The notes: generated from the sequence alone by a model not told the origin. 64,000 nucleotides of DNA from Saccostrea cucullata (GCF_032062105.1 NW_026926125.1:186001-250000); one strand, 5' to 3'. Positions 1 to 40,646 are shown, numbered from the stretch's first letter. Program-made: numbers and translations.

Positions 1-1291
1 ACCTCTGAAAATTGTAAGTGTTAAACCTTTAGAGTACATCATTCGATCGTAAGAAGCAATAAATTGAATACTATAAAAAATTGCATTACTCACTGTAAGG
101 CCAGTGTCTTAACCATAGTTTTGGACGCAAACTTAAATAATGGAACTCGCCAAGATGACCAAGAAATATTGTCAAGCGATTTTGATGATTCTTGCACATT
201 TTGCCTTTCACTTCAGTCCGACATATGTCATCACGATAGACGTTGAAGACGATGACTTCGAGGGAGAACAAATCAGCGACAGCCTGTAAAATGATATGAT
301 CGCTCCATTCACCAGACCTCGACATTCTTGTCAGATATTCCTCCCATGTTTCCTCTGATAAAAAGGAAGATAGGTGACCTTTGTCTTGATGGAAGGGATT
401 TTGTCTTAGATACCTATGGATGTAAAATTTTTCTGTTGAATATCGAAATTATGCACGTCCATAGCAGCACAGCAGAGCATGCATCACTGAATGGGTACGT
501 TTCTTTTGTTAAACTTTATTATATAAACTGAATGTGTTTGGTTAAGCGTGCTATCTGACATTCATCCTGCAATATTAATTTCAATTTTTTTACTATAAAC
601 TTACTTTATTGTTGTGTGTCTAAGAGACTCTATCGAATGCCCCAGACAGCCATTGATAAGCAATTGATCAACAATAGCCCGAAACATACAGTTCCCATCG
701 GAAATGACGTCATGTACATCAAAATTGTTGTCATTTGCAAATTTTCGTAAAGACCTTTGAAAGACTGGCATATTCATGTACTGTTCTACTCCCTGGCCTA
801 AATAAAAAGGAAAAAAATTATATCCAATAAGTCAAAAAAATTTCTTGTATGTAAGCAAATTCATTTCTGAGTTGGTTGGTTGTGTAAGTTGAATATTTTT
901 TGATCATGTGATTTGAGCTAGACTTTAATTAAAGTATTATCTTACTATATCTTCCTATATTTCTTGAGCCTAAAGATGGAGAACCGTATCCATTTTCAAA
1001 TGCATCGAAATAGAAATCGTCCTCCCTTGTCGAGGTATGATTTTCCCAGTATTCGTCCTCGCTGTCGAAGTAATCAATTTTGTCGATGTCTTCTCTTTTT
1101 TGTTCATCTGGAATGGCAATTGACGCTTTTGAAAGTCTTTCCACATTTAATAACGTTTCCTTTAAACAGTTCTCAAAAACTACATCTTCGTTACCATCAC
1201 ACTCAGGCTGGTCTTCATTTCTCCATAACCCGCGAATAGGATGTTTCAGTGTTTCTTTCTCAATACATTGTGTAACATTCTGGGAAGACAT
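1..1291 (-). CDS. OTU + cGLR/Mab-21-like protein, copy A (5' part only; exons 946-1291, 605-797, 94-413, exon 4 starts at 4 and leaves the window)
   Basis: GT-AG exons join in frame; OTU motifs DVISDGNCMFRAI and LGHLGEFHYLSL; exon sizes 346/193/320 are identical to copy D. Confidence 0.85.
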
Positions 1292-2127
1292 TATGATGAT
1301 TACGCTTTTTCTGTTAACCTTCCATGTAGGACTTTATATATCCTTTGTAGTACATTCTTTTGAAATTATTAATACATGTACAATCTATGGCAAACAAATT
1401 TACTAATAAATTGTAAGTAATGAAAATAATAAAGTGTTATTTAATAAGGACGGAAAATGATCATAATATGGCTTTCATCCAGGAAAAATAAAAGTTCATG
1501 ATATAAATAATATTTAATAGTTATCAACGGAAGTGGCATTTGATTTTTCATCGAAGAAAAAATCCATTCAAAACGTCTTAAGTACATGTAGATGATCAAA
1601 GAATTATTTAGGGAATCAAAGTCTAGTTTGTTGGGTATTCCGGGACATCAATGATAGTTGAATAGATGGGATCATTTGCAAAACGCGAGAACCTTATACT
1701 TACATCTAATTGTGAAATAAAATTACATGTATATATATTTAGGTTTAAAAACATGTCTAATAGATTTTTTTTTACACAAGGTCTTCCATGTCAATTTCAA
1801 TAGTTCCTGCCCACTGATGTCAAACACAAATAAAACCGCAAGAGAATGACTTTAAAAGAATGCTTTTTAGGCCTATGCTCGGCACTCAGGGCTATTGCCG
1901 AAAAAAAAGCAGGGTCATGTTATTTTTTTCAATCGTGCCACATATTTAACAAAGGTTTAAAAACATTGTTAAAGATAGATGTTTTTTTTATAAACGTATA
2001 TGTCTTGTTCATATGTGGAACAATTTCAAAAATAGTTCCTGCTTCCATTGTCTTTTATGACTAATCAAGCAATTCTTTATAAGAAATACAACCGCAAGAG
2101 AATGACTTTAAAAGAATGCTTTCTTTG

Positions 2128-2229: not shown

Positions 2230-4429
2230 AACACATAAAGACTTTGTTAAAGATATGTATGTTAAATATTGTATTATAAACGTATATGTACTATTTTTTT
2301 ATGCTGATTAACGCACTTGGTTTCCTTAAGAAATAAAGGAAAAAATTTCGGTGGATGTACATATATGTATATTAGGCTTCCTTACTACTTTTGCTTGACG
2401 AAATTTACATTGCAGTTGAATTATCAAGAAATCAATTCACTTAATTTTTAAAAAAGTTATCAACAGAAAAACAAATACACGTAGAAATAAAAAAAAAAAT
2501 GCGTGGTGACAAAACTGCTACATTCAGCACAGGTGTTCATGCATATGATCGTAAAAATTATTTACTGGCGGGTTACTTTTCTTCTCCTGATGTACAATGT
2601 TTAATAAAATAATTATATGAATTCGTTCTATTGCTTTGAATATCAAAATCATCATAAAATTAAAGGTTTACATTAAAGGAAAGTTGCCTTATTTCTGATA
2701 TATACAGAGTAATAATAAAATCTCGTTCGATTATATTGAAATGATTTATGTTTTTATCAGTCCCTCCTATATATCAGTCATTCTAGAGGCACTACCTCCA
2801 TCTTTATGCAAATATTCATGACTGCATTTTTTTCAAAATACTATTTTCCTAAATGCCTGATTCTTATTGTTTTCAACAAACTGTAGCTTACATTGTACTT
2901 AATTTACCATGAAAAATATTTTAAAATTAAAGTTATTAAAAACAAATTTGGCATACAAACATGGTTTTTATTTAACAATTATGGAATTATATTTTAGGTG
3001 CTTAATCTGTGGTTAAAATGTTTAATAAAGGTCAGATAAAATATTGAAACATATATTATTTTAGGGATATATGCACGATAAGTTGTTTTTATAATTTCGA
3101 ACACAGATATCGAAGTCATTGAATGAAATTCTTGATAACTGGTGATAAGACAAAAAAGACCCTAGTAACATTAGATTGGTTGATTGATTGATTGTATACT
3201 GTTTAACGTCCCTCTCCAGAATATTTCACAGTGAAGGGCTGCATGTAATAAGTGATCTTTAGGCATGGAGTTGTTTTGAATTCATTTTTTTTTCTCAACG
3301 AGTTATTGAAGTATATAACTGCTTAACACATACAATACATTTCATAAATATTTTAATCCTATTCATTAACATCGTGCTTTATCGATAAAAATAATTTCAA
3401 ATTTCCTTCTTTCTTTCTGAGAAATATACGTGCTATATCTGATGTAACCAATGAGTAAATTGAAAAAAAATTACTTCCCAAAAAGACAAGGAAGAGGTTT
3501 CTTTGATATCAAAATAATCATATTTTAAATCAGTTTTTTACTAGATGCAAATCAAGTGATAGATGAGGTAATAAACAGTACACAGTAAAGAAAAATAATC
3601 TAGTTTATTGCTTTCTTCTACCTGCAGCAATACATTGGATGACTGAGAGTTCAAAACTTTTTCTCTTACAAATATTTCACTTACATTTGGTTTTTATATA
3701 CAAATGTATAAGGTTTTAATATGAAAAAAAAAGCAATACAATTTGAGATCAAAACTATTTCTTTTAGAAAATATATAATTGTTTTTATATTGCTAAGGTT
3801 TTAATATAAAAAAATTCGATGTGATCATCAGAAAATTATATAGTTATGGCAATTGCTCTGGAATCCATTTTACTTTTTTTCCCTAATTTTTCAAATAATA
3901 GTGTATGTTTTATATTTTTAAAATGGATAAAATCTAAAACCTGCTCTTGTCCATTTAGTTTGGTCTGCTATTATTGCATGTGAAATTGGTATTTTTATAG
4001 ACATACATGTACACATTTTATTAAAAGTTTCCTTAAGCTTAGCTAAATATAATCGATACGGACCATTTTTGAGAATTGTTTTGAAACGAAGTGTGCCATT
4101 ACATAATGTTATATCCGGGAGATATAGAATGCCTCACTTTAGCATTGTTGTCAGAGATGGAAACTGTTGACACAGAACGGATCTACAAAACAAATTTTCT
4201 TGGGAAATCTGAGTAAATAAGCCATCAATCAGAGGAAGATTGTACAGGAGATGATTCTAAAAAAAATTGTACAACACGAATTTAATCAGTCTGGAAAAAA
4301 TGCATTCCTTTCAAAAGGAAATTCAGTATGAATCACAAACGATGATTTTCATAGAAGATTGATTGCATAGACGTTGCCAACATTACAATAATCAATGCCA
4401 ATAAATTGATTAAAAAAATACTGGGGCCA

Positions 4430-6460
4430 AGCTCATCATATTCAACTGAAAATACAATAATTTGAGTGCATCAACAGTGCACATACCTTTTTTGCGACAT
4501 ACTGATCATATTCAGCTGAAAATACAACATCACCAGGATCAGACAAAAAAACTAACCATCTTCTTATTGTGTACTACTGGGAAGTAAACTTCAATCGCTA
4601 CTTGGCTTCTATCACAGCCAAAATTTAGTACATGCCACATTCTGAAGTTTTATGAGTGAGTGACTCAAATCAGTTTTTTAATCCACTTTATAGCATAAAC
4701 AAAACCAGGATCATTAGCAACTGGTACAACTTACATTATGTACTCTCTATTTAGAATGTGACTTGAGTGCATCAACAATGCCCACTTTCCTCTTTGGCCA
4801 TGCCCATCATATTCAACTGAAAAATACAAAAAAAAATCATTGATTGATTGCTCGTATGTTTTTTCTTCCCTCTCGAGAAATTTTCACTCAAATTGAAACA
4901 CCATACAAAACTAAAAACAGACAAGAAAATAAATCTACTGTCTTAAATCTGTGTACTGCTTGTAAGTTCATTTTGATTGCTGTTGTTTATTTGTTTCTAT
5001 CACAGCACAGCCAAGATTTAGTACAAGTCACATTCTGAAATTTTATGTGTGAGCTCAAAACAGTTTTTAATCCCTGGGTTTGTTTATAGCATAAACAAAA
5101 CCAGGGACATTACCTACTGGTACCACTTTCACTACCTAATCAGAATGTGACTTGTGTGAATTAAAAATGTCCAATTCTCTTTATCCTTACGCCAATCATA
5201 ATCAACTGAAGAATACAAATTTGATTGATTGATTTGATATGTGTTGTTTAACGTCCCTATCGCGAATTTTTCACTCATATGGAAACCCAATAAAGAATTA
5301 AAAACAAACAAGAAAATAAACTTACACTAACATTACCCATTCAGAATGTAGCTTGAAAGCATCAACAATGTCCACTTCTCTCTTTTGGCCATGCCTCTCA
5401 TATTCAACTGAAAAATATATATACTTGATTGATTTATTGTATGTTGTTACGTCCCTCTCGAGAATTTTCACTCAAATGGAGACACCATACAAAATTGATA
5501 ACAGACAATAAAATAAACTTACTGTCTTAAATCTGTGTACTGCTTGCAAGTACATTTTGATTACTATTGTTTCTTGGTTTCTATCCATGCCAAGAATTTG
5601 TACAAGTTACATTAAAGCAATTGGTACTATCTATACTACGTATTCAGACTGTGACTTGAGTACATCAACAACTCACTTCTCTCTTTGGCCGTGCCCATCA
5701 TATTCAGCTGAAAAATACAAAATTGATCGATTGTTTTCTTCTATGTTGTTGCCGTCCCTCTTGAGAAGTTTTCACTCATTTGGAGACCCACTTAAGAATT
5801 AAAAACAGAAAAGAAAATAAACTTACTGTTATAAATCTGTGTTCTGCTGAGAATGACACTTCTATCACTGTTGTTTTTTGACTTCTATCACAGCAAAGAT
5901 TTAGTATAAGTCACATTCTGAAGTTTTATGAGGGAATGGCTCAAAAAAGTTTTGTAATCCACTGCTGGTATCACTTTCACTACCTATTCAGAATGTGACT
6001 TTGGTGCATCAACAATATCCACTTCTCTCTTTGGCCGTGCCCATCATATTCAACTGAAGAATACAAAATTGATTGATTGATTTTTTTATGTGCTATTTAA
6101 CGTCCCCCTCGGGAATTTTTCACTCAAATGGAGACCCACTAATGAATTAAAAACAGACAAGAAAATAAACTTACTGTTGTAAATCTGTGTGCTGCCGATA
6201 ATTACACTTCGATTGCTATTGTATCTTTGCTTCTATCACAGGCAGGATTTAGTACAAGTCACATTGTGAAGTTTTACGAGTGAGTGGCTCAAAACAGCTT
6301 TTAATCCACTGGGTTTGTTTATAACATAAACAAAACCAGGGACATTAGCAACTGGTATCACTTTCACTGCCTATTCAGAATGTTACTTGGGTGCATCAAC
6401 AATATTCACTTCTCTCTTTGTCTATGCCTATCATATTCATCTGAAAAATGCAAAACTGAT
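4430..6460. repeat. Complex degenerate tandem repeat (units ~190-370 bp)
   Basis: Recurring block CTATTCAGAATGTGACTT...CATCAACAATGTCCACTTCTCTCTTTGGCCATGCCCATCATATTCAACTGAAAA; same family at 37010-38120 and 41353-42660. Confidence 0.8.
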
Positions 6461-6483
6461 TAATCGACTTATTTAAGAAATAT

Positions 6484-7145: not shown

Positions 7146-8856
7146 CTTACTTACTTAGGCCTGTCGTTCCGTGAGGAACATAGACCATCAACGACAGTCC
7201 TCCAACGAACACGATTTTGGGCTGCTCTGGCTGCATCGTGCCAGGTCATATTCTGTGTCCTTAGCTCCGACTCCGAGTCACGCCTCCAGGTGTTTCTAGG
7301 TCGTCCTCGTTTTCTTTTGCCCTGTGGGTTCCAAGTCAGGGCCTGGCGTGTGATGCTGGATGGTGACTTCCTTAATATGTGTGTCCAATCCAGCGCCACT
7401 TCCTCTGTCTTATTTGTACCTCCATTGGTTCCTGTCCTGCTCTCATCCATAGTTCTTCATTTGAGATCCTATCAGGCCATCGGATGTTGTAGATGCGCCT
7501 GAGACAGGTGTTGTAAAATGTCTGGATCTTCTGCAGGGTAGCTTTAGTCATCCTCCACGTCTCTGCACCATACAGTAGGACGGACTTCACATTGGAGTTG
7601 AGGATGATATCGCAGTTTGGTGGTAGTACGTATGCTCTTTGAGGCCCAGATGTTCTTTAAAATGGTGAATGCAGTCCTAGCCTTGCCAATTCTTGACTTG
7701 ATGTCGCAGTCTGTGCCACCGTGTCTGTCCACCACACTCCCCAGGTAGATGAAGGATTCAACTTCTTTGATGGCCTCACCACCAACTGTGACTGGTGTTT
7801 GGACAGTGGTGTTTATCTTCATCAATTCTGTCTTCCTCAAGTTAATTTTGAGGCCCGTTCCTGCCGATGTTGTTGTAAGGTGGGTTGTTTTATCCTGCAT
7901 CTGATTTTGGTTGTGTGAAAGGAGAGCCAGGTCATCTGCAAAATCAAGGTCGTCCAGTTGCGTCAGGAGTGTCCACTTTATGCCATTGTTCCTGCCTGCT
8001 GTGGTTGTCCTCATGATCCAATCAATGACCAAGAGAAAAAGAAATGGTGACAGCAAGCAACCTTGTCGGACTCCTGTCTTGACCTCGAAACTCTCAGACA
8101 TCTGGCCAGCATGGGTAACTCTGCATATCATGCCTTGGTAGGTGTTTCTAATCAGGGAGACTAGCTTCTCTGGTACTCCATAGTGCCTCAGTATCTTCCA
8201 CAATGTCTCTCGGTCTACGCTGTCAAATGCTTTTTCGTAGTCGATGAAGTTGACATATAGGGGGGACTTCCACTCCAGTGATTGTTCTATAATGATGCGT
8301 AGACTGGCTATCTGGTCAGCACATGATCTGTTGGCTCTAAAACCAGCCTGTTGGTCACGGAGCTTTGGGTCCACTGCCTCTTTCATTCTCTCGAGAAGTA
8401 TTCTGTTGAGGACCTTGCCAGGCACTGATAGGAGCATGATCCCCCTGTAATTACTGCAATCTGTCAAGTCTCCCTTCTTTGGCAGCTTAATAAGGATGCC
8501 TTCTTTCCATTCTTCTGGGATGTTCTCTTCTTCCCAGATCTTGTTGAAAAGGTTGTATAGGATGTTAATGGCTGTCTCTGTATCAGCTTTGATCGCTTCT
8601 GCTGGTATCTCATCAGGCCCTGCCGCTTTTCCATTTTTAAGTTTATTAATTGCTCTCCTGATCTCTGTCTTTGTTGGCTTGTCACGGTTTATCGGGAGGT
8701 CTGTATTGGCTGGTTGAATGTCCGGAGGTGTTTCTGGTGATGGTCTATTTAATAGTTCTCTGAAGTGTTCTACCCACCTCTTTAATTGTTCTTCTGTTGT
8801 TGTAAGAATTTTCCCGTTTTTGTCCTTCACTGGCTTGTCTGTTTGCTGGAACTTGT
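7146..8856 (-). mobile_element. 5'-truncated RTE-clade LINE with frameshifted reverse transcriptase
   Basis: RT motifs DYEKAFDSV, GVRQGCLLSP, FADD (ORF 7544-8830); RTE-type C-terminus WNPQGKRKRGRPRNTW; (TAAG)n 3' tail; TSD TGCTAAAAA at 7137-7145 and 8857-8865. Confidence 0.93.
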
Positions 8857-8940
8857 TGCTAAAAAGACAATCCTTTAATAATGATTATAACTCAAGAATG
8901 CTTTTTTAATTATTTTTAAAGTTCTTTAATCAATATTTAA

Positions 8941-9669: not shown

Positions 9670-12600
9670 CACATAATTCTAGTGAAGTACAGCTTGTACT
9701 ATGAGTGTAGTACAGCTTGTACTCTGGGAGTGTGCAAAAGTAATTGCACTCAAAACAGAAAAACGATCAAGACTTAACAAATAGATCAGACGTAAAAGAA
9801 ATAGAAAAGAGGGAAGAGAAAAAGACCCTTCTTCTCTACCCGGAAACTCGAGTGAACGTAGTTTCTCGAACTTGGAATCATATCTAGATGAATTCGATAC
9901 TTAGGCAACTGATTATTTCGACAGTGAAGATGAGTATTTTGAAACATATAGAAACATTGTTGAGAACAATAGTATGTTTCCTTTAGATGGAATGAGTCAT
10001 TTTTCTGCCACAACGTCTGCGGAAAGCGGGAGATATAGTAAGATAATTTTCTATGTCCATGATTTGAATTACAAAGAATCTAAATTATGTTTGGAAGTTT
10101 TCAGAATCTATACTTCCACATGTTTCATCTTTTGTGGACTCTATTGACGCTTGGGAAGACATTTAAAGATTTTTCCTATATAAAGTGTCAAGTTTGGTTA
10201 AATTTCATCAATGGTTCTTTAATTAAAAGTGAAAAATGTGAAAGGGTTACAGATTCTAGCTATTATCCTAGGGGATGGTCGTTGTACATTTGGTGATATG
10301 AAATATAAGGTTAAGCTCTGGTGAGCTTAAAAGAATACCGGTTTCTATTTTTTTTTTACACTTTTTTTTTCAAAGAAAGCATAATCAAAATAATGTCAAG
10401 ATTATGATTGTGTAATTAGGTTCTCTGTGGATATTGGGAGAGGGGGAATGGAAACCATGACTATCAATGTTTTATTGGAATGTAAGCATAAATATTTACC
10501 ATTTTGACCCCAAAAATCATAGCTTACAAAAATCATATCAATAGTAAAGCTTCCCCAGCCTCATTAAAGCGAGGCAAAATTTGAGCCTAACTGGAATAAG
10601 ATACGTATATGGATTTGAAAATTCTGGTGGAAGGTGGATATAATTATTCATTTTGTAAGGGTACTCAGTAATTGTCTCTGAAACTACACAATAATACTAG
10701 AAGTTATGCATTTAAGTCTTCATTAATTATATAACATTTATTTAAATAAGTGATGTTTTCTCACATAGATTTCCTAATTTTCCTTAAACAGTTCAAGGAG
10801 TGTCACAATACAAAAACATGCTAGTTTTCATGTCGTCCTTACAGAAATTTGCAAAATCCAATGGATTTACTGTCCATGATGTTATGGCAGATGGGAACTG
10901 TCTTTTCAGAGCCATTGGTGATCAACTTTCGGTTAACGGAATCTTCGACAATTCTCCTGTTTCACTGCGGAAAAACACTCTAAAGTGCGCTAGATACGAA
11001 GTTTTTAATTTTAAATTAGAATTGAGAATATAGTTTATTTAAAGTCTTGAATAATGACAAGATTTTTAAAAATTGACAAGTTTCTTCGGGAAAATCCATA
11101 TCAAGAAGATGGGTCACATTCTGAGTCATTTCTTTTCACCGAAAGTTGGGAGCAATACTTGTCAAGAATGGAGCAAAATACTGAATGGTGTGATCATGTC
11201 ATATTTAAAGCTGCTGTGGACGCCCTTGGTTTACGAGCTGTTGTGTTTAATGTGTACGGCGACGATATCAGGCGCACCGAAGTTCTTTCCAGAAACCCGT
11301 CTGATGGCAACTTAACAGTTTATCTCGGTCATTTTGGAGAATTTCACTATCTTAGCTTGAGACCTAACAACTGGGATAAAGAGTGGCAATGCAGTTAAGA
11401 TCTACAATTTTTAGTAACCTTTTATATATAAATTTCTCAGTAGCATGTAATTTTTGGCAGAATTTAATAAGATGTTCGAATTTTTTAAACTGCATCCTTC
11501 CATTTAGAAACGTGTTCTTAACGTAAATAAGCTATTTAAAATGAAACAAACCATATATTTCGCTCTTTTTTTAAAATATTGGTTATATTTACAACAAGAG
11601 AGGCAAATATAAATGGCTTTAAACTGCGTGCAGCCATGCAGAATCTGATTTTTAAATATATTTGATATTTCGTTGTAGAACCATTGATGTTCAGACAAGA
11701 ACTACTCACTAAACAGTTTGAAGGTATGAAAAATCAAACTGATGAGATAAAGGACTCAAAGGATTTCCAAAGAATATGTGGACTCCAAACAGAGATGAAA
11801 GGTGATGGAAATCAACCCGACTTTGAACATTTCGGAAACAGAGTATGCCCAGTTTACAGTTTAAATGACCTTGATATAGAGGAAAATAAAGGTAAATTTT
11901 AAAGAAAAAAAAAACGAATGCTGTATTTGAAATTTGAAAAAAATCACTTCTCTTATTAATTCAAATGAAAAAAGGGTACTAAATTCCATAAATGCTAGTT
12001 AATGTAATTTTTTAAATTGTACAGAATCGCTAAATCGTCTAGTAGAGGATCCATTTTACGTTGATGCAAGAACAGGACTTCCACTGCAACATTTATCGTA
12101 TCTCATTTACCATTTGATTCCTCCTACGATGAGTTTGTACAATTCTTTTGATCTTCCACCGGTTCAAAAGGATGGGATGCTGTTTCAGTATTTAGGATCA
12201 TTTGCAACGGGAAGAAATATATTCATAAAGGATATTACACGAGGATATACTATAAGAAACAAGGTAAAGAAAGATGCTACTGTCGTTGCTTTACGGCCAC
12301 TTACATCTGCGATTTCAATCGACACAAAGGACACTCATCCAGGCTTCCTACGACTATTCTACATTCCCAGAAAAAAAATTGTATCGAAATGAGGACAGTG
12401 TTTTCTTAAAAAGATTAGATGTACCTGAAAAGATATCTTTATCAGAAAGGTCAGAAAGATGTTATATGGGGTTCTTCATTGATAAGTTTCCCCAAGCTGG
12501 AGAAGAGTGGATAAGCAGACGAAAGAAATTTCAATGGCCACCACATGATGTGGTGGATGCTGTACAAAATGCAGGATATACCATAATTCCAAAACATCAC

Positions 12601-14197
12601 CCAATGAGCTGTAATCCAGATATCGAATGGAAGTTCGATTTCTCAAACTCTGAATCTTGTATTTTCAAAAATGGTCTTACGGGAAAACAATGGCGCGGTT
12701 TTATTGTACTCCAAATACTTCTAGAAAACAGTAAATGCCACTTTGGACGTGGGTTAAAATTAAAGCATACTAAGGCAGTATTTTTTCAATTGCTGTGAGC
12801 AGATTCCTATTAAAGCATGGGAGACAAACCTGAGGCGATGTATTCTTTATGCTATGGTATTTTTGTTAGATTGTCTAATAAAAAAGACTTTACCTCATTA
12901 TTTCATGCAGTCACGCTATTTATTTGACAACTACACGGAGATAGATCTTGAAGCCATACATATTCAAATAGAAGCAATACGTTTGTTTCCAGCGCAGGCT
13001 TTACAATTTCTTGCTGAAGATTATGGCTAGACATACGGGGCAAACCTATCAAGATTTATTTTACAAGACTGTAGAAGATTTGCATCAAGTGGAGACATAC
13101 TGTCAACTTTTCATGAAATCTTTGTTCCTGGAACGGTCAAAACAATAAAATTTTTAACAAGACGTGGATATTATCAAGCAGCTTTATATCTTCTTCTATA
13201 TACCTTTCAGATACACTTGTCCTCTACATATGCCAAACCAAACAATTTAAAATTCAATTTTGCAGAATTTTTCTGTTGTACTCTCAGCGAAATTCTCCAA
13301 GAAGCCTCTAGGACCATTTTTGGCCAAAACGTTTGAAAACATATATGGTATGAAAATACTCGATTCAATCCTGAAAACAGATGGTCTCTTTGTTAAAGAT
13401 ATCTTACCTTGGGAGATAGACTACCATATTGCCAGTCTGCATATACCGATGGAAAAACGTCTAATTTTGAATCGATTGGCGATTTCTTTTACAAATTTAG
13501 TAAAACGGAGGTGAAGAGATTTAATAGTTACTTAGCAACACTAGGAATTTCAGAGGCAATTCGGTGTTTCGAAAGAGCTATTCAAGAGGGAATTATGATT
13601 GATATTGAAATTGACGACAAAGCTTTTAAAAATTAAGGGAAAATTAAAACAGTGCTATTTGCTTACATTCTGCATTGCAAAATTGGACTACAAATACGAA
13701 TTCCTAGAAATTTATATGCCTGCAGTAGAAGAATTATGCAAAGAATTCCCAGAAATGAGTGAAGCTGTCAGCCACATGTACGGATTCTTGCGTTATCCTG
13801 GTAAACAAAGGGAATATGAACAACTTGTTGATAGTTTCTTAGGGATAGGTATGTAAAACTTGCAGCCTTCTTTTGTAAATCTTCAAAATATCTTATCTTT
13901 AATTCAGCATACATGTACCGTATAAGTAGAATTTTTAGCGAGAATTTAATTTTAGCATTATTAGCGAGGGTGCTGACATCGCTAAAATTGAATATCGCTA
14001 AAAATTAACTGTGTATTATTTGTAATAGCTTGTACTTTAGTAAGTATTTTAAAATCACTAAAATTACTTATCGCTAAAAATAAAATACCAGATTTTGGGT
14101 AGAAATCGCTAAATTTGCGTCTCGCTAAAATTTCCACTTACACGGTAACTCTTTTCTTTTAGATGATGTGTACAAAGGGCCATCGAAATTGAAATAA
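9670..14197 (+). pseudogene. OTU + cGLR-like gene, copy B (pseudogene, same subfamily as copy C)
   Basis: Homologous exons (..10037, 10792-10984, ~11081-11393, ~11680-11891, ~12025-13849, 14163-14197); in-frame TAG at 9902 and 13028; frameshifts or deletions near 12360, 12787 and 13630. Confidence 0.85.
13916..14147. mobile_element. TA-flanked MITE in the last intron of copy B
   Basis: TIR TACCGTATAAGTAGAATTTTTAGCGAG / CTCGCTAAAATTTCCACTTACACGGTA; absent from the equivalent intron of copy C. Confidence 0.8.
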
Positions 14198-16269: not shown

Positions 16270-16460
16270 GACTCTTATTTGTTTTAGAAAGATACGATCT
16301 GAATTTCATTTCATATTCTTTCTGCTTGTCAGGCATTCTCATGATCAGGATATCAAACATTTCACAAACTTTGGCGTTCATGTGCGGAAATTCCTTACAT
16401 TGTCTTTCTTTATCATGCATATGTTCGATCAAGGGATAAAAAGCGGATACATATATGCGT
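16270..16460 (-). pseudogene. 3' fragment of a copy-D-type OTU-cGLR gene
   Basis: IEHMHDKERQCKEFPHM...MPDKQKEYEMKFRSYLSKT aligns with the copy D tail INYMDDIERQCEEFPSM...MPDKQREYELKLRSYLSET. Confidence 0.8.
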
Positions 16461-16825: not shown

Positions 16826-19800
16826 ATGTCGCACTATAACATTCTAGCAGAGTTTGAAAAATCATCAGACAGAACAGAAACTAGAGGATATTTTCGAGGA
16901 ATCTGGTCCAATGATACACCTGAAGAAGGTGACGAAGAAATTCAAAATGAGTTTATAAATGTTCAAGAAGAAAATTTGCAGAGAAGCAGTATCACTTTCC
17001 CAAACGAAGTGCACGAACAAAACGAGCTTGATCCGATGAGGATGACCCTCTCAAATGACATTGTCGGAGACTTTGAAGATAACTTCAAGTCAATAATTCC
17101 AAAAAGCTTGGATGCACAATCAGGCCTCATTTGGTCTGGAAATGTACAAAAATCTAGTTTGACTTCCAAAAACGAAATCAGTAATGAATCATTGATAAAG
17201 ACTCACTCAGATGATTTTGATTTCAAAAACGTTGAAAATAAAGACAAAAAGGAAATGGAAAAAAGAACAGCAAATAATGTTACGAAAAAGGAAGAGGATA
17301 AAAAGGCATTTATTCACTCTAAAAATCTAAGTAAACAGGCTTTTTCAGAAACGGAACTCCATCTACATGATTTTGAAACTGATGCTACTGATTATTTTGA
17401 CAGTGAAGACGAATATTTTGAAACATACAGAAACAACTTTGAGGACAGTCCGATGTTTACTTATCATGGAATGATTCATTCTCCTTTGTCAACATCAGCA
17501 GTAAATGGAAGATACAGTAAGATTATCTTCAACATGTAATTGATACTAATTATAAATAGTAATGCACTGACCAATCTTTTGTTGCAACTCGCTTTGTTTT
17601 ACAAAGTAGTATGCTTCGTCTAGTTATACTTTAAACATTTCGGAAATCTTAATCGTTAACTGCAGTATATCTTACATTGTATTTTTCACTTACCATGACC
17701 TTTTTTAAAACACATTGTGCCTCCTTCCTAACCATGTACAGTGGAATTGATTTGAACAAGTCTGAGCACCCTATGGACATACGTCTTTCATGATATTTTT
17801 TTTTTTTTAATTTAACCCATAACCGGATTTTAAAATAATATGAAGACATGTGTTATGATAAAATGGTGAGGTTACAAGGAGTGTAGGGAAGGAAAATTTC
17901 TTAGAGAAAATATGTTCTGAATGTTTTTAAGGTGAAGGCGTATCACGGTACAATAACATGCCAGTGTTTGTGACATCCTTACAGAGGTTTGCAAAAGCCA
18001 ATGGATTCACAGTTCATAACGTTATGGCAGATGGAAATTGTCTCTTCAGAGCTATCAATGATCAGCTTTCTGTGAACGGAATCTTTGGCAACTCCCCCGA
18101 ATCATTACGGAAAAACACTATCAAGTGCGTTATACAATGCTTCTCCTTTTTATCTATACCTGTATTAAACAATCCATAAAAAAATCGTCTATTTATGAGG
18201 GTTGTCTCAGAAATTAGATGCATCGATATCAGAGGACATTGTTGTGAAAATATAAATAATTCCAAACATTATGCAAAAAAATAAATTTGGAAGGGAGTTT
18301 ATGAGATGCGTTTATTTTTTCTTGGACAGCCACTGTGTTATTAAGTGAGAAAAAATTATTCAGTACAGATTACAAACCATTTTCTAAAGGTACGAATTCT
18401 CAAATAATATATTTAATAATTTTTTCTTCTTTTTATTGTAAGCAGTTATCTTCGGGAAAATCCTTACCAAGAGGATGGGTCACATACTGAGTCTTTCCTT
18501 TTCACTGAAAACTGGGAACAATACTTGTCGAGAATGGAACAAAGTACAGAATGGTGCGATCACGTCATATTTAAGGCTGCCGTTGACGCCTTGGGTCTAC
18601 GAGTTGTGGTTTTTAATGTTTATGGGGACGATATTAGACGAACAGAGGTTTTATCCAGAAAACAATCCGTTGACATCATAACCATTTATCTCGGTCACTT
18701 TGGAGAATTTCACTACCTTAGTTTAAGACCCAATAATTGGGAGTCGGAATGGCAAAACAGTTAAGAAAATAATTTATTCAGATTAGTGTTAGATAAACTC
18801 AAGGTTTCAATGCTTCACATTTTTGTGTAAGATCGAAGGCTTATAAGTTATAAATATTAAAAAATAAGTATGTTGTAAGACATTGTCAAGATTTTCAAAC
18901 GTTTTTTTTTCTTTTGTTTTGAAGATTTTCTTATATCCGCTTGTTTTTTGTATCTAGGATTCGTATTTTGAATCATTTTGAAATCTAAATATTTCATTTA
19001 AATTATTTTTGTAGAAGCTCTAATGTTTAGACACCAATTACCCATTAGACAATTTGAGAGTATGAAAATTCAAAGTGATGAGAAAAAAGGCGTAGAAAAC
19101 TGTCTCAAAATAACATCAAAATCTGACTTCGACACAGAAATACAAACTGACTGGAAAAGCTCAGAAAAGTTTGGATTCATAGTGTGTCCAGTTTATGGTT
19201 TGAAAGATCTAGATATGGAAGAAAATCAGGGTAGAATTAATATATATTTTTGAACAAAAAAGTGATTTCAAAGTTTAAAAAAACATCATTGCCATTTTTT
19301 TTTCACAAAACATAAAGGGCTAGCATGGTATGTTGTTAAGAATTCAGAAAAAAAAATTCCTTATATTTTTATACTTTTTTTTATTTTTTAGAATCGATGC
19401 ATCGTCTTATAGAGGATCCATTTTACATTGATACACGAACAGGACTTCCACTTCAACATTTATCGTATCTCATGAATCATTTGATTCCTCCTAGGATGAC
19501 TCTCGTTAATTCTCATGCACTTCCACCAGTAGAAAAGAATGGGACGATGTTTCAGTATTTAGGATCATTTGCTACAGGGACCTATGCATTCTTACAGGAT
19601 ATTCCTCTAGGCTACACGTCAAGAAATCATATTAAGAAACATGCCACAGTCGTTGCTTTAAGACCGCTTACGTCTGCAATTCTAATCGACACAAAAGACA
19701 TTCATCCAGGTTTCCTACGGTTAAAAGTTTTATCAATGTCGCATCTATTCCCAGAAAAAAGTTTACATAGATGTGAGAATGATGTTTTCCTAAAAAGATT

Positions 19801-21400
19801 AGATGTCCCTGATAATATGTCTTTACCCAAGATGTCAGAAAGATGTTATATTGGATTTTGTAGTGGTGAGTTTCCACTAGCTGCAGATGAGTGGCGAAAT
19901 AGACAAAGAAAATGGCCACCACACGAAGTAGTGACTGCTGTCTATAATGCCGGATGTACCTTAATTCCAAAACATCACCCAAAGAGTTGTAATCCAGAAA
20001 TCGAGTGGAAATTTAACTTCACAAACTCTGAAGTGTTACTGTTTTCAAAAGCTGTTACAGGCAAGCAACGTCGCGGATTTTTTCTTCTGCACATGCTTTT
20101 CGATAACAATACATGTCACTTTCGACGCAAATTAAAAATGAAACACACTAAGGCAGTTTTTTTTAACTGCTGTGAACAGATTCCTGTTGAAAAATGGGAA
20201 ACAAACTTAAGTGGGTGCATTCTTTATGCTACAGCATTTCTATTAGCTTGTCTTAGAGAAAGGAATCTGCCACATTATTTCATCCCATCGTTCAATTTAT
20301 TTGAGAACTACAAGGAGGAAGATCTTGAAATCATGTGTATTCAAATTGAGGCTATCCGGTTGTTTCCGGTTCAAACTTTACAATTTCTCACAGAAAGTTA
20401 TGGATACTCATACGGAGCAAACCTGTCAAGATTGGTTTTACAGGACTGTAAAAGATTTGCATCAAGTAGAGACATATTGTCAACTTATCATGATGTTTTC
20501 ATTCCTGGGACAATTAAAACAGTCAAATTTTTAACAAGACAAGGTTATTATAAAGCAGCTTATTTTCTTCTCCTTAATACTTATGTGTCACGTCTTTGCT
20601 TTACCTTAACAGACACTAGCGATTTTAATTGTAATTTCACAGAATTTTTCTGTCGTGCTCTCCATGAAATTCGCCAGGAAGCCTCTCGGACCATTTTGGC
20701 AAAAAAGTTTGAAAACGAACATGGTGTAAAAATACTGGATTCCGTAATGAAAGCAGGTGGTCTTTTCGTAGAGGATATTGTACCATGGGGGGTAAATTAC
20801 GAGATTGCTAAGCTTCATATACCAATGGAAAAAATGTCAAATTTCGAATCAATTGGAGATTTTTTTTACGAATATAGTAAAACTGAAGTAAAGAGATTTA
20901 ACAGTGATCTAGCTACGATAGGAATTTCGGAAGCAATTCGCTGTTTCGAAAGAGCTATTCAAGAGGGGCCAATGATTGATGTTGAAATAGATGACGAAGC
21001 TTTGATAAAAGAAATCCAGTCTCAAAGGTCTGAAATTATGAAAAAACTAAAAGAAAAATTGATGAATTGCTACATCCATACTATGAAAATTTCCCAAATG
21101 CACCGGACTTACCTGCCACTGGAAATATATATGCCTGCAATAGAAGAATTATGCCAAGAAATGCCAGATATAAGTGGAGTTGTCAGTATTATGTACCAAT
21201 ATTTGAATAATCCTAGTAAACAGAAGGAATATCAAACGCGTTTTGATAGTATCTTAGGGACAGGTAGGTAAAATTTTGAGCTTCGATTGCTCATCTTTGA
21301 AACATATTGTATCATGTATGTATTTTAATTCCATCTTCTCTATTCCTTTGTAGGTGAAGTGTACAAAGGACCATCAACATTGAAAACTAATAGATTTTAA
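16826..21400 (+). CDS. OTU deubiquitinase + Mab-21/cGAS-like pseudo-nucleotidyltransferase + helical tail, copy C, ~1110 aa (exons 16826-17516, 17932-18124, 18446-18759, 19015-19230, 19392-21263, 21354-21400)
   Basis: Exons join to 3333 nt in frame; OTU DGNCLFRA / GHFGEFHYLSL; Mab-21 motifs HPGFLRL, WRNRQRKWP, LIPK, EWKFNF..SE, CL...LPHYFIPSFNLF. Last exon (VYKGPS.LK) is conserved in copy B; an unspliced alternative would stop at 21271. Confidence 0.88.
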
Positions 21401-22265: not shown

Positions 22266-22920
22266 TGGAGGTAGTATAAAATTTAAAAATATTTTATTCA
22301 TTAGAGTACTGTATCTCCTTTTATTTTCATTTTCTAAAGGAATTATATAAAGTAGGAGAAAACATTTCGTAGGGAAAAGAAGTTGGCAAGAGTTTGTCAA
22401 GTTGGAAAGGGAGGGGGTCGATAGTATTGTTACCACTCTTTTCCTAGTTATCGAATATGGGCTTTGAAATGGTCCATTATTATTGGTTTAGTAAATGCTA
22501 AATATTTATATCGCAAAAGAGATTCTGTAAATTTTCCAGGTGTAAAAGTAAGCCGTCGATTGTTAAAGTCAGCGCTTCTCGCAAAAGTTTAATAGCTTGC
22601 CCACTTTAAGAAATTGTTCATAAGTAGAGCATGTTTTTGCGTATTAAACCAGCTGAGAGACAAAAAAACATATCCAGGCGATAAAGGTATATTGCTAAGT
22701 GATTAAGGAAAATTCACAGGTACTTGTAGACAGGATTCCCCCTAAATATTCAACAATATTCAACTTCGGGGTTTGTTGGGCATTTTTTCACAAATTAAAT
22801 TTATTACACTTATTCATCATTTATAAGTACAATAGAAAAAAATCGTTAAAACGTCAAAATAAGCGCTCCACAAAAATACCCCACTGTACATATTATTAGA
22901 GAAAGGTATGTCACTCCTGT

Positions 22921-23412
22921 TTGTTTGTGCCTAAAGTCAACAAAGAAATTTGGCGCCAAATGCACAAACAAGCTTTTACAAAAAAGCGTGACTTAAGATT
23001 GATGAATGTTCAGAGTTTGATCACTAAGTCAACTTGTGCAATAGTTAGTGTAGCAAACAAGTTGTTAAATTTGGATGGCCAGAAGCATGATGCAGAAATA
23101 AGAAATTGTCATGATGCAATTTATTTATTAGGCCATGCGAATACCACTATGTCTATGCAGCGGAGAGATTTATTAAGACCAGTACTTAAAAGTGATTATG
23201 CTGCATTATGTGACAGCAATGTCCCGGTTACGTCTTTGCTTTTCGGAGATGACCTTCCTAAGTCTCTGAAGGAGGCTCGTCAAGTAGGCAATGTTGGAAG
23301 GGATTTTTCAAAAAACGGGAAAAGATTTGGGTTCAGTCAGAGGAACAAGAGCGATTTTTCTTGGAAAAAGAAGAATCAAAGTCAGCAGAAGAGATTCAAG
23401 AAAGATCAGTAA
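22921..23412 (+). CDS. DIRS gag, C-terminal part
   Basis: PKVNKEIW ... RRDLLRP ... LFGDDL, typical of DIRS gag; overlaps the RT ORF. Confidence 0.75.
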   Translation: MFVPKVNKEIWRQMHKQAFTKKRDLRLMNVQSLITKSTCAIVSVANKLLNLDGQKHDAEIRNCHDAIYLLGHANTTMSMQRRDLLRPVLKSDYAALCDSNVPVTSLLFGDDLPKSLKEARQVGNVGRDFSKNGKRFGFSQRNKSDFSWKKKNQSQQKRFKKDQ

Positions 23413-25541
23413 CAGAGACCCTGACTGAGGTAAAACTTCAATCTACTACATCTGAAGAATATGCAAGTTTTATAGAAAAAACTATTTTGAATGCTAAAAG
23501 AGACATATTACAATTTGAAGGTGGCAGAATCATGCATTTTATAGATCAATGGACTGAGTTCACTTCAGATCCAGAAATATTGAGCATTGTGAAGGGTATT
23601 GAACTTGAATTTATTAGTAAACCAGTTCAAAACATTAATGCAATGCATCAATGCAAATTTAATATGACAGAGAAAAAAGCAATTGATGACGAAATACAAA
23701 AATTACTTGATAAAAAAGTAATTGTGGAAAGTGAAGAGGAAAAAGACCAGTTTGTGTCTCCTATATTTTTAAGACCTAAAAAAGATGGTAAATACAGGTT
23801 GATATGCAACTTGAAACATTTGAATAAATTTATTCAGTATCGCCATTTTAAAATGGATTCACTGGTGTCAGTTTTAAGGATGATAACACCAAATTGTTAT
23901 ATGGCTTCCATTGATCTAAAAGATGCATATTACTGCATACCGGTTGCAGATGTTTATCAGAAATATCTTAAATTCTATTGGAATTCAAAGCTTTACATGT
24001 ATAGAGCATGTCCTATGGGCTTATGCATGAGCCCTCGGTTATTTACAAAGGTACTGAAACCAGTTTTTTCAAGGCTTAGACAAAATGGCCATCAATCTGT
24101 AATTTACATTGATGACATTTATTTGCAAGGTGACAATGCTCAAGCATGTCAGGAAAATGCAATTGCTACAGCAAACATGCTGGTTAATTGTGGATTTGTC
24201 ATTAACCCTGAAAAATCTGTTTTTCAGCCAAGCCAAGAAATAGAATATCTAGGTTTCCTACTAAACTCAGTAGAAATGACAATTGCAATTACAGAAAGAA
24301 AGGCATTGAAAGTGGTTACAATTTGTGATGAATATCTTAAATCAAAAAGAAATTCAATTAGAGATCTTAGCACTGTTATTGGAAACTTGGTGGCAAGTTT
24401 TCCAGCTGTACCACATGGACAGTTGTTTTATCGTCAATTAGAGAATGAGAAAATTTTGGCTTTAAAAATGTCAAGGGGTCAATTTGATGCTGAAGTTCAT
24501 TTATCAAATCTAGCAATTAATGACTTAGAGTGGTGGAAACTAAACATTGTGGGTTCTAAGGCCTCAATTACCCGAGGTCAATCGGAGTTGATAATTGAAA
24601 CTGATGCAAGTTTGCAAGGCTGGGGTTGCGATTGTCAATCACTGAGCATATCAACAGGTGGCCCATGGAAAGAATCCGAAAAGAATTATCATATAAATGT
24701 TTTAGAACTTCAAGCTGTTTATTTTGCATTGCAATCAATATGTAATGATAAGAAAGATATGCACATAAAGCTTTTAATTGACAATACAACTGCTGTAGCA
24801 TATATTAGAGAACAAGGAGGTAGTCGTTCTTTAGAGTGCAATAAAATGGTCCGAAAAATTTGGACTTGGGCATATGAGAAAAATATTTGGCTTACAGCTG
24901 CTCATATTCCGGGGAAAATAAACTGCAAGGCAGATTTTGAGAGTAGACATTTTAAACAGGAATATGAATGGATGCTTAATAAACAAGTTTATCAATCAGC
25001 TTGTGATAAATTGAATTTTAATCCAGATATTGATTTGTTTGCTACACGCAATAACTGTCAATTAGAAAAATTTGTGTCGTGGAAACCAGAGCCTGAATCT
25101 TTTGCAATTGATGCTTTTTCTATTTCTTGGGCTGACATGAAATTATACTGTTTTCCACCTTTTAGTTTGATACCTTCGGTTTTACAGAAAATAGTGTTAG
25201 ATGAAGCCACAGGTATTTTAATAATGCCAGATTGGCCAACACAACCATATTATGCAACTGCAATGAAAATGCTCATAGAAAATCCAATCTTTGTTCACAG
25301 GAGGAAAACTTTGTTGGGCATACCGGGGACAACGCAGATACACAAAATATGGGAAAAGTTGAACTTACTAATATGTCTGTTATCAGGAGATCAATCCAGA
25401 GTAAAGACTTATCGGAGCAAACTAAAGACATTTTGTTGTCTTCATGGAGAGAAAAAACAACTAAACAATACGAGTGTTACCTACGTAAGTGGGAGACATT
25501 CTGTAGTGGACGGGAAGTTAATCCCTTTTCAACACCTGTGA
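23361..25541 (+). CDS. DIRS reverse transcriptase + RNase H + adenine-methyltransferase-like domain
   Basis: IDLKDAY, PMGL..SP, YIDD; TDASLQGWG, HINVLEL, DNTTA; DLFA..N, DAF, FPPF. Confidence 0.93.
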   Translation: MEKEESKSAEEIQERSVTETLTEVKLQSTTSEEYASFIEKTILNAKRDILQFEGGRIMHFIDQWTEFTSDPEILSIVKGIELEFISKPVQNINAMHQCKFNMTEKKAIDDEIQKLLDKKVIVESEEEKDQFVSPIFLRPKKDGKYRLICNLKHLNKFIQYRHFKMDSLVSVLRMITPNCYMASIDLKDAYYCIPVADVYQKYLKFYWNSKLYMYRACPMGLCMSPRLFTKVLKPVFSRLRQNGHQSVIYIDDIYLQGDNAQACQENAIATANMLVNCGFVINPEKSVFQPSQEIEYLGFLLNSVEMTIAITERKALKVVTICDEYLKSKRNSIRDLSTVIGNLVASFPAVPHGQLFYRQLENEKILALKMSRGQFDAEVHLSNLAINDLEWWKLNIVGSKASITRGQSELIIETDASLQGWGCDCQSLSISTGGPWKESEKNYHINVLELQAVYFALQSICNDKKDMHIKLLIDNTTAVAYIREQGGSRSLECNKMVRKIWTWAYEKNIWLTAAHIPGKINCKADFESRHFKQEYEWMLNKQVYQSACDKLNFNPDIDLFATRNNCQLEKFVSWKPEPESFAIDAFSISWADMKLYCFPPFSLIPSVLQKIVLDEATGILIMPDWPTQPYYATAMKMLIENPIFVHRRKTLLGIPGTTQIHKIWEKLNLLICLLSGDQSRVKTYRSKLKTFCCLHGEKKQLNNTSVTYVSGRHSVVDGKLIPFQHL

Positions 25542-26353
25542 AGGAAGTTTTAGAATTCTTAACTTTTTTATACGAGAGTGGCATTGGCTATTCTGGGATA
25601 AACACAGCAAGAAGTGCTTTATCGTCAGTAGTTACTCTTGTTGATGCCGTGCATCATCCAGTGGGACAGCATCCCTTAATTAAAAGATTTCTCAAGGGTG
25701 TTTTTAATAAGAGACCTACTTTTCCAAGATATTCAGAAATCTGGGATGTTTCAGTAGTGTTCAACTGGATGAAAACAATTAATTTTGATGATATGTGTTT
25801 GAAGTTGTTAACGCTGAAGACAGTAATGCTTTTAGCTTTATTATCTGGACAAAGGGTACAAACCCTTAAAGCGTTATCAGTGGAAAATTTAAAATTTACG
25901 GATTCTTATGTAGAATTTAGAGTTGATTCTTTACTCAAACAAAGCAGGCCTGGGTTTCACTTGAATAAACTCGTATTACCGGCTTATGAGGACAGAAATT
26001 TGTGTATAGTCCAACATTTGAGAAAATACATTGACATGACAAAAGAAATAAGGAACACTGATTCATTATTAATTAGCTATCAAAAGCCCCATGCGTCAGT
26101 ATCATGTGACACTATTGCTCGCTGGATAAAATCGGTGCTTAGCAAAAGTGGTGTGGATGTTAATGTTTACACTGCGCATAGTACACGTGCTGCGTCGACA
26201 TCTTGCGCAGCTTCAATGGGATGTCCAATAGACACCATACTGGCACAAGTGGGCTGGGCTAAGGAAAAAACTTTCGCCAAATTTTACAACAAAAACTATA
26301 ATGCGGAGAACATGTCTTTAGGACAAACAATATATAAGTGCATTGATAAATAA
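25232..26353 (+). CDS. DIRS tyrosine recombinase
   Basis: LALLSGQRVQ, HSTRAAS, GW....F..FY catalytic R-H-R-W-Y signature. Confidence 0.93.
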   Translation: MANTTILCNCNENAHRKSNLCSQEENFVGHTGDNADTQNMGKVELTNMSVIRRSIQSKDLSEQTKDILLSSWREKTTKQYECYLRKWETFCSGREVNPFSTPVKEVLEFLTFLYESGIGYSGINTARSALSSVVTLVDAVHHPVGQHPLIKRFLKGVFNKRPTFPRYSEIWDVSVVFNWMKTINFDDMCLKLLTLKTVMLLALLSGQRVQTLKALSVENLKFTDSYVEFRVDSLLKQSRPGFHLNKLVLPAYEDRNLCIVQHLRKYIDMTKEIRNTDSLLISYQKPHASVSCDTIARWIKSVLSKSGVDVNVYTAHSTRAASTSCAASMGCPIDTILAQVGWAKEKTFAKFYNKNYNAENMSLGQTIYKCIDK

Positions 26354-26511
26354 ATGTCATGTTTTGAAATACAGTGATGTATATATATTTATATAAGTAG
26401 ATTACATTGTAGCAATAAATTAAATTGCATTCAATGTTTTTATTACATTAATAGCCCCAGAGCTTTAAAATCTCATGTGGTTCTGTAATGAACTGGACAG
26501 TGATGAAGTAG

Positions 26512-39418: not shown

Positions 39419-40646
39419 TATGGCAAGCCCTTTTGCTATTTATTCGGAAAATAAAATTTAACTTAAAATTACAGAGATATCTCTCATTTTGAGAGATATC
39501 TCTTTAAAAATAGAGATATCTCTCATTTTGAAGAGATATCTCTATGAGAAAGAGATATCTCTTAAACTTAGAGAGATATCTCTAATACTTAGAGAGAAAT
39601 CTCTTTTTATTAGAGAGATATCTCTTCCACTTGAAAAGATATCTTTTTCTCCTTGAGAGATATCTCTTTCGTGAAAAGAGATATCTATAAACGTTAAAGA
39701 GATATCTCTTTCACCTAGAGAGATATCTTTTTTACTTTTGGAGATATCTCTCAAGGATAAAGAGACATCTCTTAAAGTAAAAGAGATATCTCTCTTAGTT
39801 TATCTTAAGAGATATCTCTTAAAGTGAAAGAGATATCTTTCAAAAGTGTCTAAAAGAGATATCTCTTTCACTTTAAGAGATATCTCTTTGTCGCAAAGAG
39901 ATATCTCTATACAAATTTTTTATTTAAGTTCCATTTCAAATGACTTCTCCCTTTACCGGAAGTAAACTTTTTATTGACGGAAGTATAGTTTATTATTCAT
40001 AAGCTGAGAAAATTCGGTCCATTGCATATGCTTACTTTCGTTTTTGTGAATATTAAACTTTACGCATTTTTATCAACGAAGTTGCCATTATTATTTGTTG
40101 TTTCAAGTAAGGGATTTATAGCATTTTTGTCTACACAGTACATGTATTATTCAGGGTAATTCCTTGCTCAGTCTTTTTTTCTTGTAACAGAGAAACTATT
40201 CCAGAGACTTTACTTCATGTTTCGCTTTCGTTTTAAAGTGGAGAATTAATTATTCTATTTTAAGCATCACTGGAAAAGAGATATCTCTTTTATTAAAAGA
40301 GATATCTCTTAAGCTCATAAAGATATCTCTTTTTAAAAATCTAAAGAGATATCTCTCTAACTAAGAAAGATATCTCTTTTAACCTTGTTAAAGAGATATC
40401 TCTCTAACTTGAAGAGATATCTCTCTCGCTTAAAGAGATATCTCTCTAGCTTATAAAGATATCTCTCTAAGTAAAAGAGATATCTCTCTTACAAAAAGAG
40501 ATATCTCTCTAAGCTATAAAGATATCTCTTTTAGATAAAGAGATATCTCTATAAACTAAAGAGATATCTCTTTATGTTAGAGAGATATCTCTATTATTGA
40601 AAGAAAATTTTTATTTCACGAATAAATAGTAAAAGGGCTTGCCATA
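39419..40646. mobile_element. Nested TA-flanked TIR element with subterminal AGAGATATCTCT palindrome arrays
   Basis: TIR TATGGCAAGCCCTTTTGCTATTTATTCG / CGAATAAATAGTAAAAGGGCTTGCCATA; arrays at 39473-39910 and 40277-40592. Confidence 0.8.

Follow-up and report, generated by a model that had tools for sequence, protein, structure and literature searches.

What can a cGAS-like receptor (cGLR) domain do once it has lost the residues that make a second messenger? This question is raised by gene C, a gene on the plus strand at positions 16826-21400 of a 64,000-nucleotide stretch of DNA from the oyster Saccostrea cucullata (NW_026926125.1:186001-250000), here called the window. An earlier, sequence-only reading proposed that the domain is a pseudoenzyme in gene C and in a related copy, D. 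It further proposed that the loss is old and selected, and that the basic pocket left behind binds a polyanion. We find that the domain is predicted to retain the cGAS/Mab-21 fold, that no member of its family has a complete catalytic triad, and that an OTU domain is encoded upstream in the same gene. We tentatively suggest that the dead fold senses a small phosphate-rich ligand and thereby controls the OTU domain.

The predicted fold is that of cGAS and the active site is lost

The pseudo-cGLR domain is encoded at 19421-20407, with residues counted from the Met at 19397. Its AlphaFold2 model, built from a 29-sequence alignment, has a predicted local distance difference test (pLDDT) score of 89.5 and a predicted template modelling (pTM) score of 0.85. 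Residues 9-337 match MB21D2 (VIA Z 23.9, root-mean-square deviation 3.5, 293 aligned), and the model also matches human cGAS (Z 23.0), coral Sp-cGLR1 (Z 22.8) and oyster Cv-cGLR1, with Z values of 20-24 across MB21D2, cGAS, Sp-cGLR1 and Cv-cGLR1. Pfam assigns Mab-21_C (E 3e-14), while Mab-21 falls under the cut-off. For comparison, we assembled 35 family domains (20 from this genome and 15 from databases, with three near-duplicates dropped) and, as controls, 28 ordinary cGLRs (18 from this genome and 10 from databases). The two alignments match with an hhalign probability of 100 over 426 columns. Thus, the family has homology to cGLRs across the nucleotidyltransferase (NTase) core and helical bundle, and residues 9-337 have predicted structural homology to cGAS and the CD-NTases. 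However, the active-site motif that defines cGLRs, GS..[DE]h[DE]h..h[DE]h, is broken, reading H82/T84/R149 at the acidic positions in gene C. The family is therefore derived from cGLRs but is not a cGLR family.

The three catalytic sites are acidic in 12, 2 and 3 of the 35 family members, compared with 28, 28 and 28 of the 28 ordinary cGLRs. All three acids occur together in none of the 35 family members and in all 28 ordinary oyster cGLRs. This loss is not due to chance, and the description of the domain as a pseudoenzyme extends to the whole family. The claim that the catalytic acids are replaced needs a correction. The second and third are lost in most members, but the first is kept in 12 and is Asp in the closest relatives of gene C, although variation in the length of the preceding loop makes this the least certain column. 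These relatives read KKDATVV, and gene C has CAT where its paralog L002 has GAT; His82 appears to be a recent change, one base from their Asp. One member, L012, is alone in having D-G-D at the DxD position; its third acid is Leu and its SY motif is lost.

Other active-site features have gone as well. The GP hairpin is found in 1 of 35 family members versus 26 of 28 ordinary cGLRs, with about 30 residues deleted at this point, which precedes R149 (19841-19843; placed by hhalign and the family tally). The base-stacking Tyr of the SY motif, which is Y436 in cGAS according to one report (PMC4897736), is replaced by Lys in 32 of 35 members. G56 is kept in 34 members and the Ser of GS in only 19, and position 60 is acidic in 20. 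A regular expression for the motif of Li et al. 2023 (10.1101/2023.02.22.529553) is not discriminating, as it matches 4 of 35 family members and 6 of 28 controls. Judged by its residues, the dead domain would have no synthase activity.

The residue register was taken from the AlphaFold2 model and profile alignment. In the model, the second strand, which bears the DxD motif, spans residues 83-90. The hhalign alignment pairs H82/T84 with D90/D92, R149 with D207 and KMKH with SSYC, so that K247-M248-K249 lie opposite S-S-Y; its column confidence is low around DxD. Both uphold the register that had been set by eye, and the motifs quoted from it are present. In gene C these are LGSFATG (G56 at 19562), KKHATVVAL (H82 at 19640-19642, T84 at 19646-19648), RCYIGF (R149) and KMKHTK (20135-20152). 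In copy D, on the minus strand, they are FIGPLCDP (32667-32644), KKRQFKKPRIVII (32589-32551) and KRKHLK (32034-32017). In this register, H82, T84 and R149 take the places of the three acidic residues of the metal site. The segment at 19562-19648 is predicted by the model and hhalign to hold G56-S57, D68 (19598-19600), a basic loop that varies and, in place of the first two catalytic acids, H82 and T84.

A rival MAFFT register, which places D68 (in LQDI) on the first acid, was not preferred after comparison with the AlphaFold2 strand and hhalign. In this register the position two residues after D68 is acidic in none of the 35 members, so that DxD is absent either way. D68 is near-invariant (34/35), its spacing is that of the first acid in short cGLRs, and it may lie near the metal site.

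New charge maps to the former nucleotide pocket

Position 192 is Lys or Arg in 34 of 35 family members, whereas every one of the 28 controls has Pro, Ala or Ser there. At positions 247 and 249, Lys is present in 30 and 32 members, respectively, and in no control. Mapped onto the pocket, these new lysines would join those kept at 205, 232 and 252. In gene C the family alignment places K192, K205, K247, K249 and K252 within 19970-20152, with His at 232, where 29 of 35 members have Lys. The net charge over 14 mapped pocket positions is 0 to +6 in the family and -2 to 0 in the controls, and the median isoelectric point (pI) of the domain is 8.7 versus 5.9. The idea of a basic pocket therefore survives, but not through the basic loop that had been quoted for it. 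Ahead of the second strand, net charge varies from -2 to +10 across the family, and pLDDT is below 50 at residues 71-78.

The spine helix of active cGLRs is their nucleic-acid-binding face. In our model it is short, comprising residues 19-29, and where active cGLRs continue the helix there is a short hairpin (residues 31-49, strands 35-37 and 45-47; 19487-19543), which is the fastest-changing segment. Over six pairs, the ratio of nonsynonymous to synonymous differences (pN/pS) is 1.16 for the hairpin (Fisher p 3e-5), 0.6 for the loop at 69-82 (Fisher p 2e-4) and 0.15-0.49 for the remaining segments, these segments having been drawn after a first look at D-type pairs. The ratio of nonsynonymous to synonymous substitution rates (dN/dS) is 0.14-0.37 for the second lobe in 11 of 11 paralog pairs, which agrees with the proposal that the loss is kept by selection. 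For the first lobe it is 0.21-0.39 in seven pairs and 0.54-1.08 in four close pairs. For the most part, then, purifying selection acts on the dead domain.

Gene C joins the dead domain to an OTU domain

Gene C has six exons and five introns and encodes a protein of 1110 amino acids. From the N- to the C-terminus, this comprises an acidic tail, the OTU domain, a linker, the Mab-21/cGAS-fold domain and a helical tail. Translation of the spliced coding sequence reproduces P0034 exactly; NCBI lists this Saccostrea cucullata protein as uncharacterized. Exon 1 (16826-17516; 100% match to P0034) encodes an acidic, probably disordered N-terminus and ends with a conserved DYFDSEDEY motif (17390-17416) and GRY. 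Exons 2 (17932-18124) and 3 (18446-18759), both with splice joints in RNA, encode the N- and C-terminal halves of the OTU domain, with catalytic Cys267 (DGNC) at 18039-18041 and catalytic His384 (EFHY) at 18711-18713. Exon 4 (19015-19230), with RNA contig joints on both sides, encodes a helix and a low-confidence linker leading to the cGAS-fold domain; the matching stretch of the ortholog P0001, residues 207-249, has pLDDT below 50. Exon 5 (19392-21263), the last large exon, carries the pseudo-cGLR domain and the helical tail (20408-21263). Exon 6 (21354-21400), whose joint is seen in run X21, supplies the final residues and the stop codon. The last third of the tail is arranged like tetratricopeptide repeats (TPR) in the AlphaFold2 model. 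Its matches to TPR proteins (Z 9-12) are below the level that counts for helical repeats, and in the ESM Atlas it matches only unnamed mollusc clusters (<0.9).

Four RNA runs were compared with gene C. GT..AG joints are present for all five introns, with that of exons 1 and 2 (17516-17932) seen in three of the four runs. In run X2, overlapping contigs connect the OTU exons via exon 4 to the cGLR exon. This supports a single spliced transcript that carries both OTU and pseudo-cGLR. The reads are few (47 and 76 in two raw-read runs) and mostly 90-95% alike; they show that gene C, or an allele or paralog close to it, is expressed at a low level, without pinning the expression to this very copy. 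Pseudogene decay of gene C is ruled out by the open frame, the splicing and dN/dS.

Pfam identifies the OTU domain of P0034 at E 9e-11, above its cut-off, and both catalytic residues, Cys267 and His384, are present. We infer deubiquitinase activity from these residues. The fused OTU, which was absent from the sequence-only account, likely supplies the output of the protein. The best solved OTU for the family profile is OTUD5/DUBA (E 2e-10), and 3pfy and 3tmo are the sole OTU chains at E <1e-7; when a single sequence was used as the query, a viral OTU came out slightly ahead of OTUD5. In P0052 from Magallana gigas, the OTU Cys is kept, the DGN loop reads DEL and Pfam OTU is under the cut-off, and the protease is possibly weakened.

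OTU matches number more than 100 in the genome. Many lie in the very long frames expected of transposons, and they include a Ginger1-type integrase-OTU element. One such frame of 985 amino acids joins an integrase (rve) to an OTU (L071:2323-5277, G000 C200). About a dozen near-identical Ginger1-type copies are the next-best matches to the family OTU exon (32% identity), and an element of this type is a possible donor of the family OTU. Elsewhere, at G000 C3756:25534-47511, there are seven tandem OTU-containing frames of about 1078 amino acids with a 3.6-kb period.

The family is shared by several oyster genera

A genome search gave 124 matches, and we count 24 family loci in the 1.17-Gb assembly, some of which are perhaps haplotype duplicates. 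Upstream exons with both the OTU Cys and His are present at 21 of the 24. At the others, we see a Cys exon (L072), an OTU fragment (L028) and no OTU exons (L007). At two of two ordinary cGLR loci checked, there is no OTU within 8-9 kb. Two very divergent genes for an OTU and a dead cGLR, L072 (G000 C1411) and L027/L069 (G000 C14202), have another exon structure and lie on the deepest branches.

Four oyster genera, Saccostrea, Ostrea, Magallana and Crassostrea, are represented among the named members. A quick tree with 66 rows, whose base is left unsure by long branches, places the 38 family rows on one side of a branch with SH-aLRT support of 84, and 96-98 for an inner core. The C-type and D-type groups each mix several oyster genera. 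Therefore, catalytic loss predates those splits, and the view that the loss is old is upheld. The ESM Atlas has an 81-member cluster, possibly that of P0034 itself, with Mab-21_C in 100% and OTU in 99%. We found no published description of an OTU-Mab-21 fusion in a search that did not cover subscription papers and bioRxiv supplements. Six supplement files of Li et al. were searched separately for OTU, PF02338 and the family identifiers, with no match. The architecture is present in databases as uncharacterized proteins, and dead NTase folds are already known.

Proposed mechanism and alternatives

We suggest that the lysine-lined former nucleotide pocket would take a small phosphate-rich ligand, such as a cyclic dinucleotide or a nucleoside triphosphate (NTP), without metal. 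Binding would gate or aim ubiquitin removal by the fused OTU, and the outcome may be the tuning of ubiquitin-dependent antiviral signalling. A small ligand is favoured because it is at positions of the former nucleotide pocket that charge has been newly gained and conserved, and the surface that binds nucleic acid in active cGLRs has been cut short and varies. We regard this role for the dead fold, a ligand sensor that controls the OTU, as possible and hold it tentatively. The full-length model of the ortholog P0001 (890 amino acids) has a pTM of 0.80. With an unplaced OTU, a rough bound would be 0.66-0.73 for a core of 0.9, and this suggests that the OTU is held in a fixed position against, and in contact with, the rest of the protein. 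A two-chain prediction of the OTU with the cGLR-tail part, run without alignments, scored 0.01 and is evidence neither for nor against contact. A narrower form of the proposal is rather unlikely: that a former synthase binds the cyclic dinucleotides of its own family and, wired to a deubiquitinase, acts as a STING-independent receptor for cGLR messengers.

Several points weigh against the ligand-sensor proposal. The geometry and electrostatics of the pocket are deduced from mapped sequence positions, and the control cGLRs were picked by similarity and not at random. L022 and L072, which branch deepest in the family, have an acidic pI (5.4 and 6.1). Loss of the base-stacking Tyr would weaken the binding of a nucleobase, and D68 together with the acid at position 60 could form salt bridges with the lysines and fill the pocket. 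The residue two after the OTU His is Leu, Val or Phe and not Asp or Asn; this third triad residue is also missing from some active OTUs. The pTM of P0001 falls within the bound for an unplaced OTU if the core is perfect (0.73-0.80), and a 40-residue low-confidence linker separates the OTU from the cGAS-fold domain.

The alternative that survives best, though we consider it doubtful, is that the dead domain and the helical tail serve as an adaptor, binding a host signalling protein and so delivering the OTU to it, with the pocket lysines being structural. This would suit the TPR-like tail, an invariant D68 that could pair with the lysines, and the presence of MiD49 among the fold neighbours (Z 16.6). 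There is also a precedent in shrimp Mab21 proteins, which are reported to bind no dsDNA or dsRNA, to make no cGAMP and to act by binding IKKepsilon (PMC12928593). However, three neutral-to-lysine changes have been fixed in the mapped pocket and pI has risen by about 3 units, which exceeds the need of a filled pocket.

The ligand guess of the sequence-only reading included nucleic acid, and long dsRNA or DNA might be bound on the outer surface, as in OASL, to localise or activate the OTU. The domain pI is above 8.5 in 23 of 35 family members versus 1 of 28 controls, and Li et al. tie pI >8.5 to nucleic-acid sensing (10.1101/2023.02.22.529553). We nevertheless judge this improbable. A number of the conserved basic columns fall in the pocket instead, and long nucleic acid is disfavoured because the modelled spine helix is short and the segment that replaces it evolves at a neutral rate. 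This argues against what was the weaker half of that guess.

It is very unlikely that the domain is an integrated decoy, to which pathogen inhibitors of cGLRs bind and so trigger the OTU or lose ubiquitin to it. The tandem expansion with broken copies, the 24 amino-acid-changing versus 5 silent differences in the hairpin of the three closest pairs, and first-lobe dN/dS of 0.68-1.08 among D-type copies would all be in keeping with a decoy. However, the hairpin ratio does not clearly exceed 1 and is compatible with relaxed constraint. A decoy would also be expected to look like an active cGLR, and the remodelled pocket does not fit this.

We give slightly less credence still to docking of the protein's own DYFDSEDEY motif, perhaps phosphorylated, in the basic pocket as a switch for the OTU in cis. 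The motif lies 74 residues before the catalytic Cys in an N-terminus of pI 4.7, and its D-Y-F-D-S and E-Y (7 positions) are invariant in 13 of 13 aligned copies, amid an otherwise variable tail. DYFDS..EY may resemble the Ser177 site of OTUD5, a likeness that our checks did not verify: the motif profile had no match among solved chains, the OTU profile alignment to OTUD5 stopped short of the motif, and a short OTUD5-like site pattern had no match in the genome. A site of this type would act on the OTU-ubiquitin contact instead, and the folded models did not include the motif. OTUD5, the closest solved OTU, targets TRAF3 and STING and depends on phosphorylation of its Ser177 by CK2, according to a review (PMC10136533).

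Finally, a residual nucleotide reaction is the least credible reading; it would use D68, a first acid where one is retained, and the acid at position 60. D68 and G56 persist in 34 of 35 members, the first acid does in 12, and three members, apart from L012 with its DxD, have two of the three mapped acids, but the triad is complete in none. The second and third acids have gone, as have SY and the GP hairpin, and the Ser of GS remains in only 19 of 35.

Other copies and repeats in the window

Copy A (86-1333, minus strand) is represented in the window by exons 1-3, which include both catalytic OTU residues, Cys and His; the cGLR exon of this copy (L018) is found just past the edge of the window. 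Copy B (9815-13894, plus strand) is a C-type paralog with frameshifts and stops that retains KKDATVV. Copy D (30895-35005, minus strand) has OTU exons at 33777-34497 and an open pseudo-cGLR exon of 664 codons at 30895-32889. Copies L003, L021 and L028 are broken, like B, and OTU exon 3 of L002 is frameshifted in the assembly. A short fragment upstream of gene C (16286-16444, minus strand) resembles the C-terminal end of the family (E 0.002).

Between copies A and B, a frame for a reverse transcriptase of the long interspersed element type was recognised by eye (7544-8884, minus strand). Between C and D, a retroelement at 22900-29724 has frames for reverse transcriptase, RNase H and tyrosine recombinase, and is DIRS-like by composition. 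It contains a 2.7-kb direct duplication (24298-27011 and 27010-29724, 99.7% identity), which is either recent or an assembly artefact. Diverged tandem-like arrays are shared by the neighbourhoods of A and D (4460-6475, 37080-38120, 39460-40620, 41350-42680 and 46330-47720). A segmental duplication is marked by two matches of about 85%, one between 1-1618 and 33683-35332 and the other between 3794-5530 and 36402-38122.

Significance and comparison with known systems

Animal cGLR surveys have filtered on the catalytic motif, so that dead members were excluded by design; Li et al. (10.1101/2023.02.22.529553) retained only proteins with the active-site motif. The present family indicates that one lineage traded messenger synthesis for a protease output, which has been kept across oyster genera. 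If the pocket does read cyclic dinucleotides, it would represent an animal receptor besides STING. The family would then be a set of ligand-gated ubiquitin editors reading the output of the very large oyster cGLR repertoire, and would help to explain how responses are tuned in those bivalves that possess few STINGs but hundreds of cGLRs. Were it an adaptor instead, it would still be an expanded, testable deubiquitinase family in farmed species hit by viral mortality.

The family shares its predicted fold with cGLRs. Among ordinary members of that group, those closest to it are oyster proteins that end in a helical or TPR tail, L024 (hhalign E 8e-50) being one example. The family differs from cGLRs in the loss of the triad, GP hairpin and SY, in its short spine helix and in its N-terminal OTU. 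With OTUD5/DUBA, the family OTU shares the DG.CLFRA.ADQ motif, and the conserved acidic S-E-D-E motif upstream of it may correspond to the Ser177 site. Unlike the family, OTUD5 has a ubiquitin-interacting motif (UIM) and no NTase fold; the Pfam hits of P0034, P0065 and P0052 at E 0.01 include no UIM. The likeness is one of profile and does not establish orthology.

There are precedents for dead NTase folds that bind ligands, namely OASL (PMC4446440) and MAB21L1 with CTP or ATP (PMC4897736). MAB21L1, MiD49/MiD51 and shrimp LvMab21 resemble the family in having the cGAS fold without shown synthase activity, and no OTU fusion is seen in the portions of the sources available. MAB21L1 keeps most donor-NTP and metal residues, and its CTP sits beside the spine helix and not in the active site (PMC4897736). 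The closest functional analogy is human OASL, which also combines a dead immune NTase fold with a ubiquitin-related module. OASL is derived from OAS (PMC4446440), has kept the dsRNA groove and mimics ubiquitin chains with its ubiquitin-like domains, whereas the partner in the oyster family is a protease that would remove such chains. The family has no OASL-type C-terminal ubiquitin-like domains, its tail being all-helical in the model and without a Pfam hit of that kind. By analogy, the family may work like OASL or like the shrimp Mab21 proteins.

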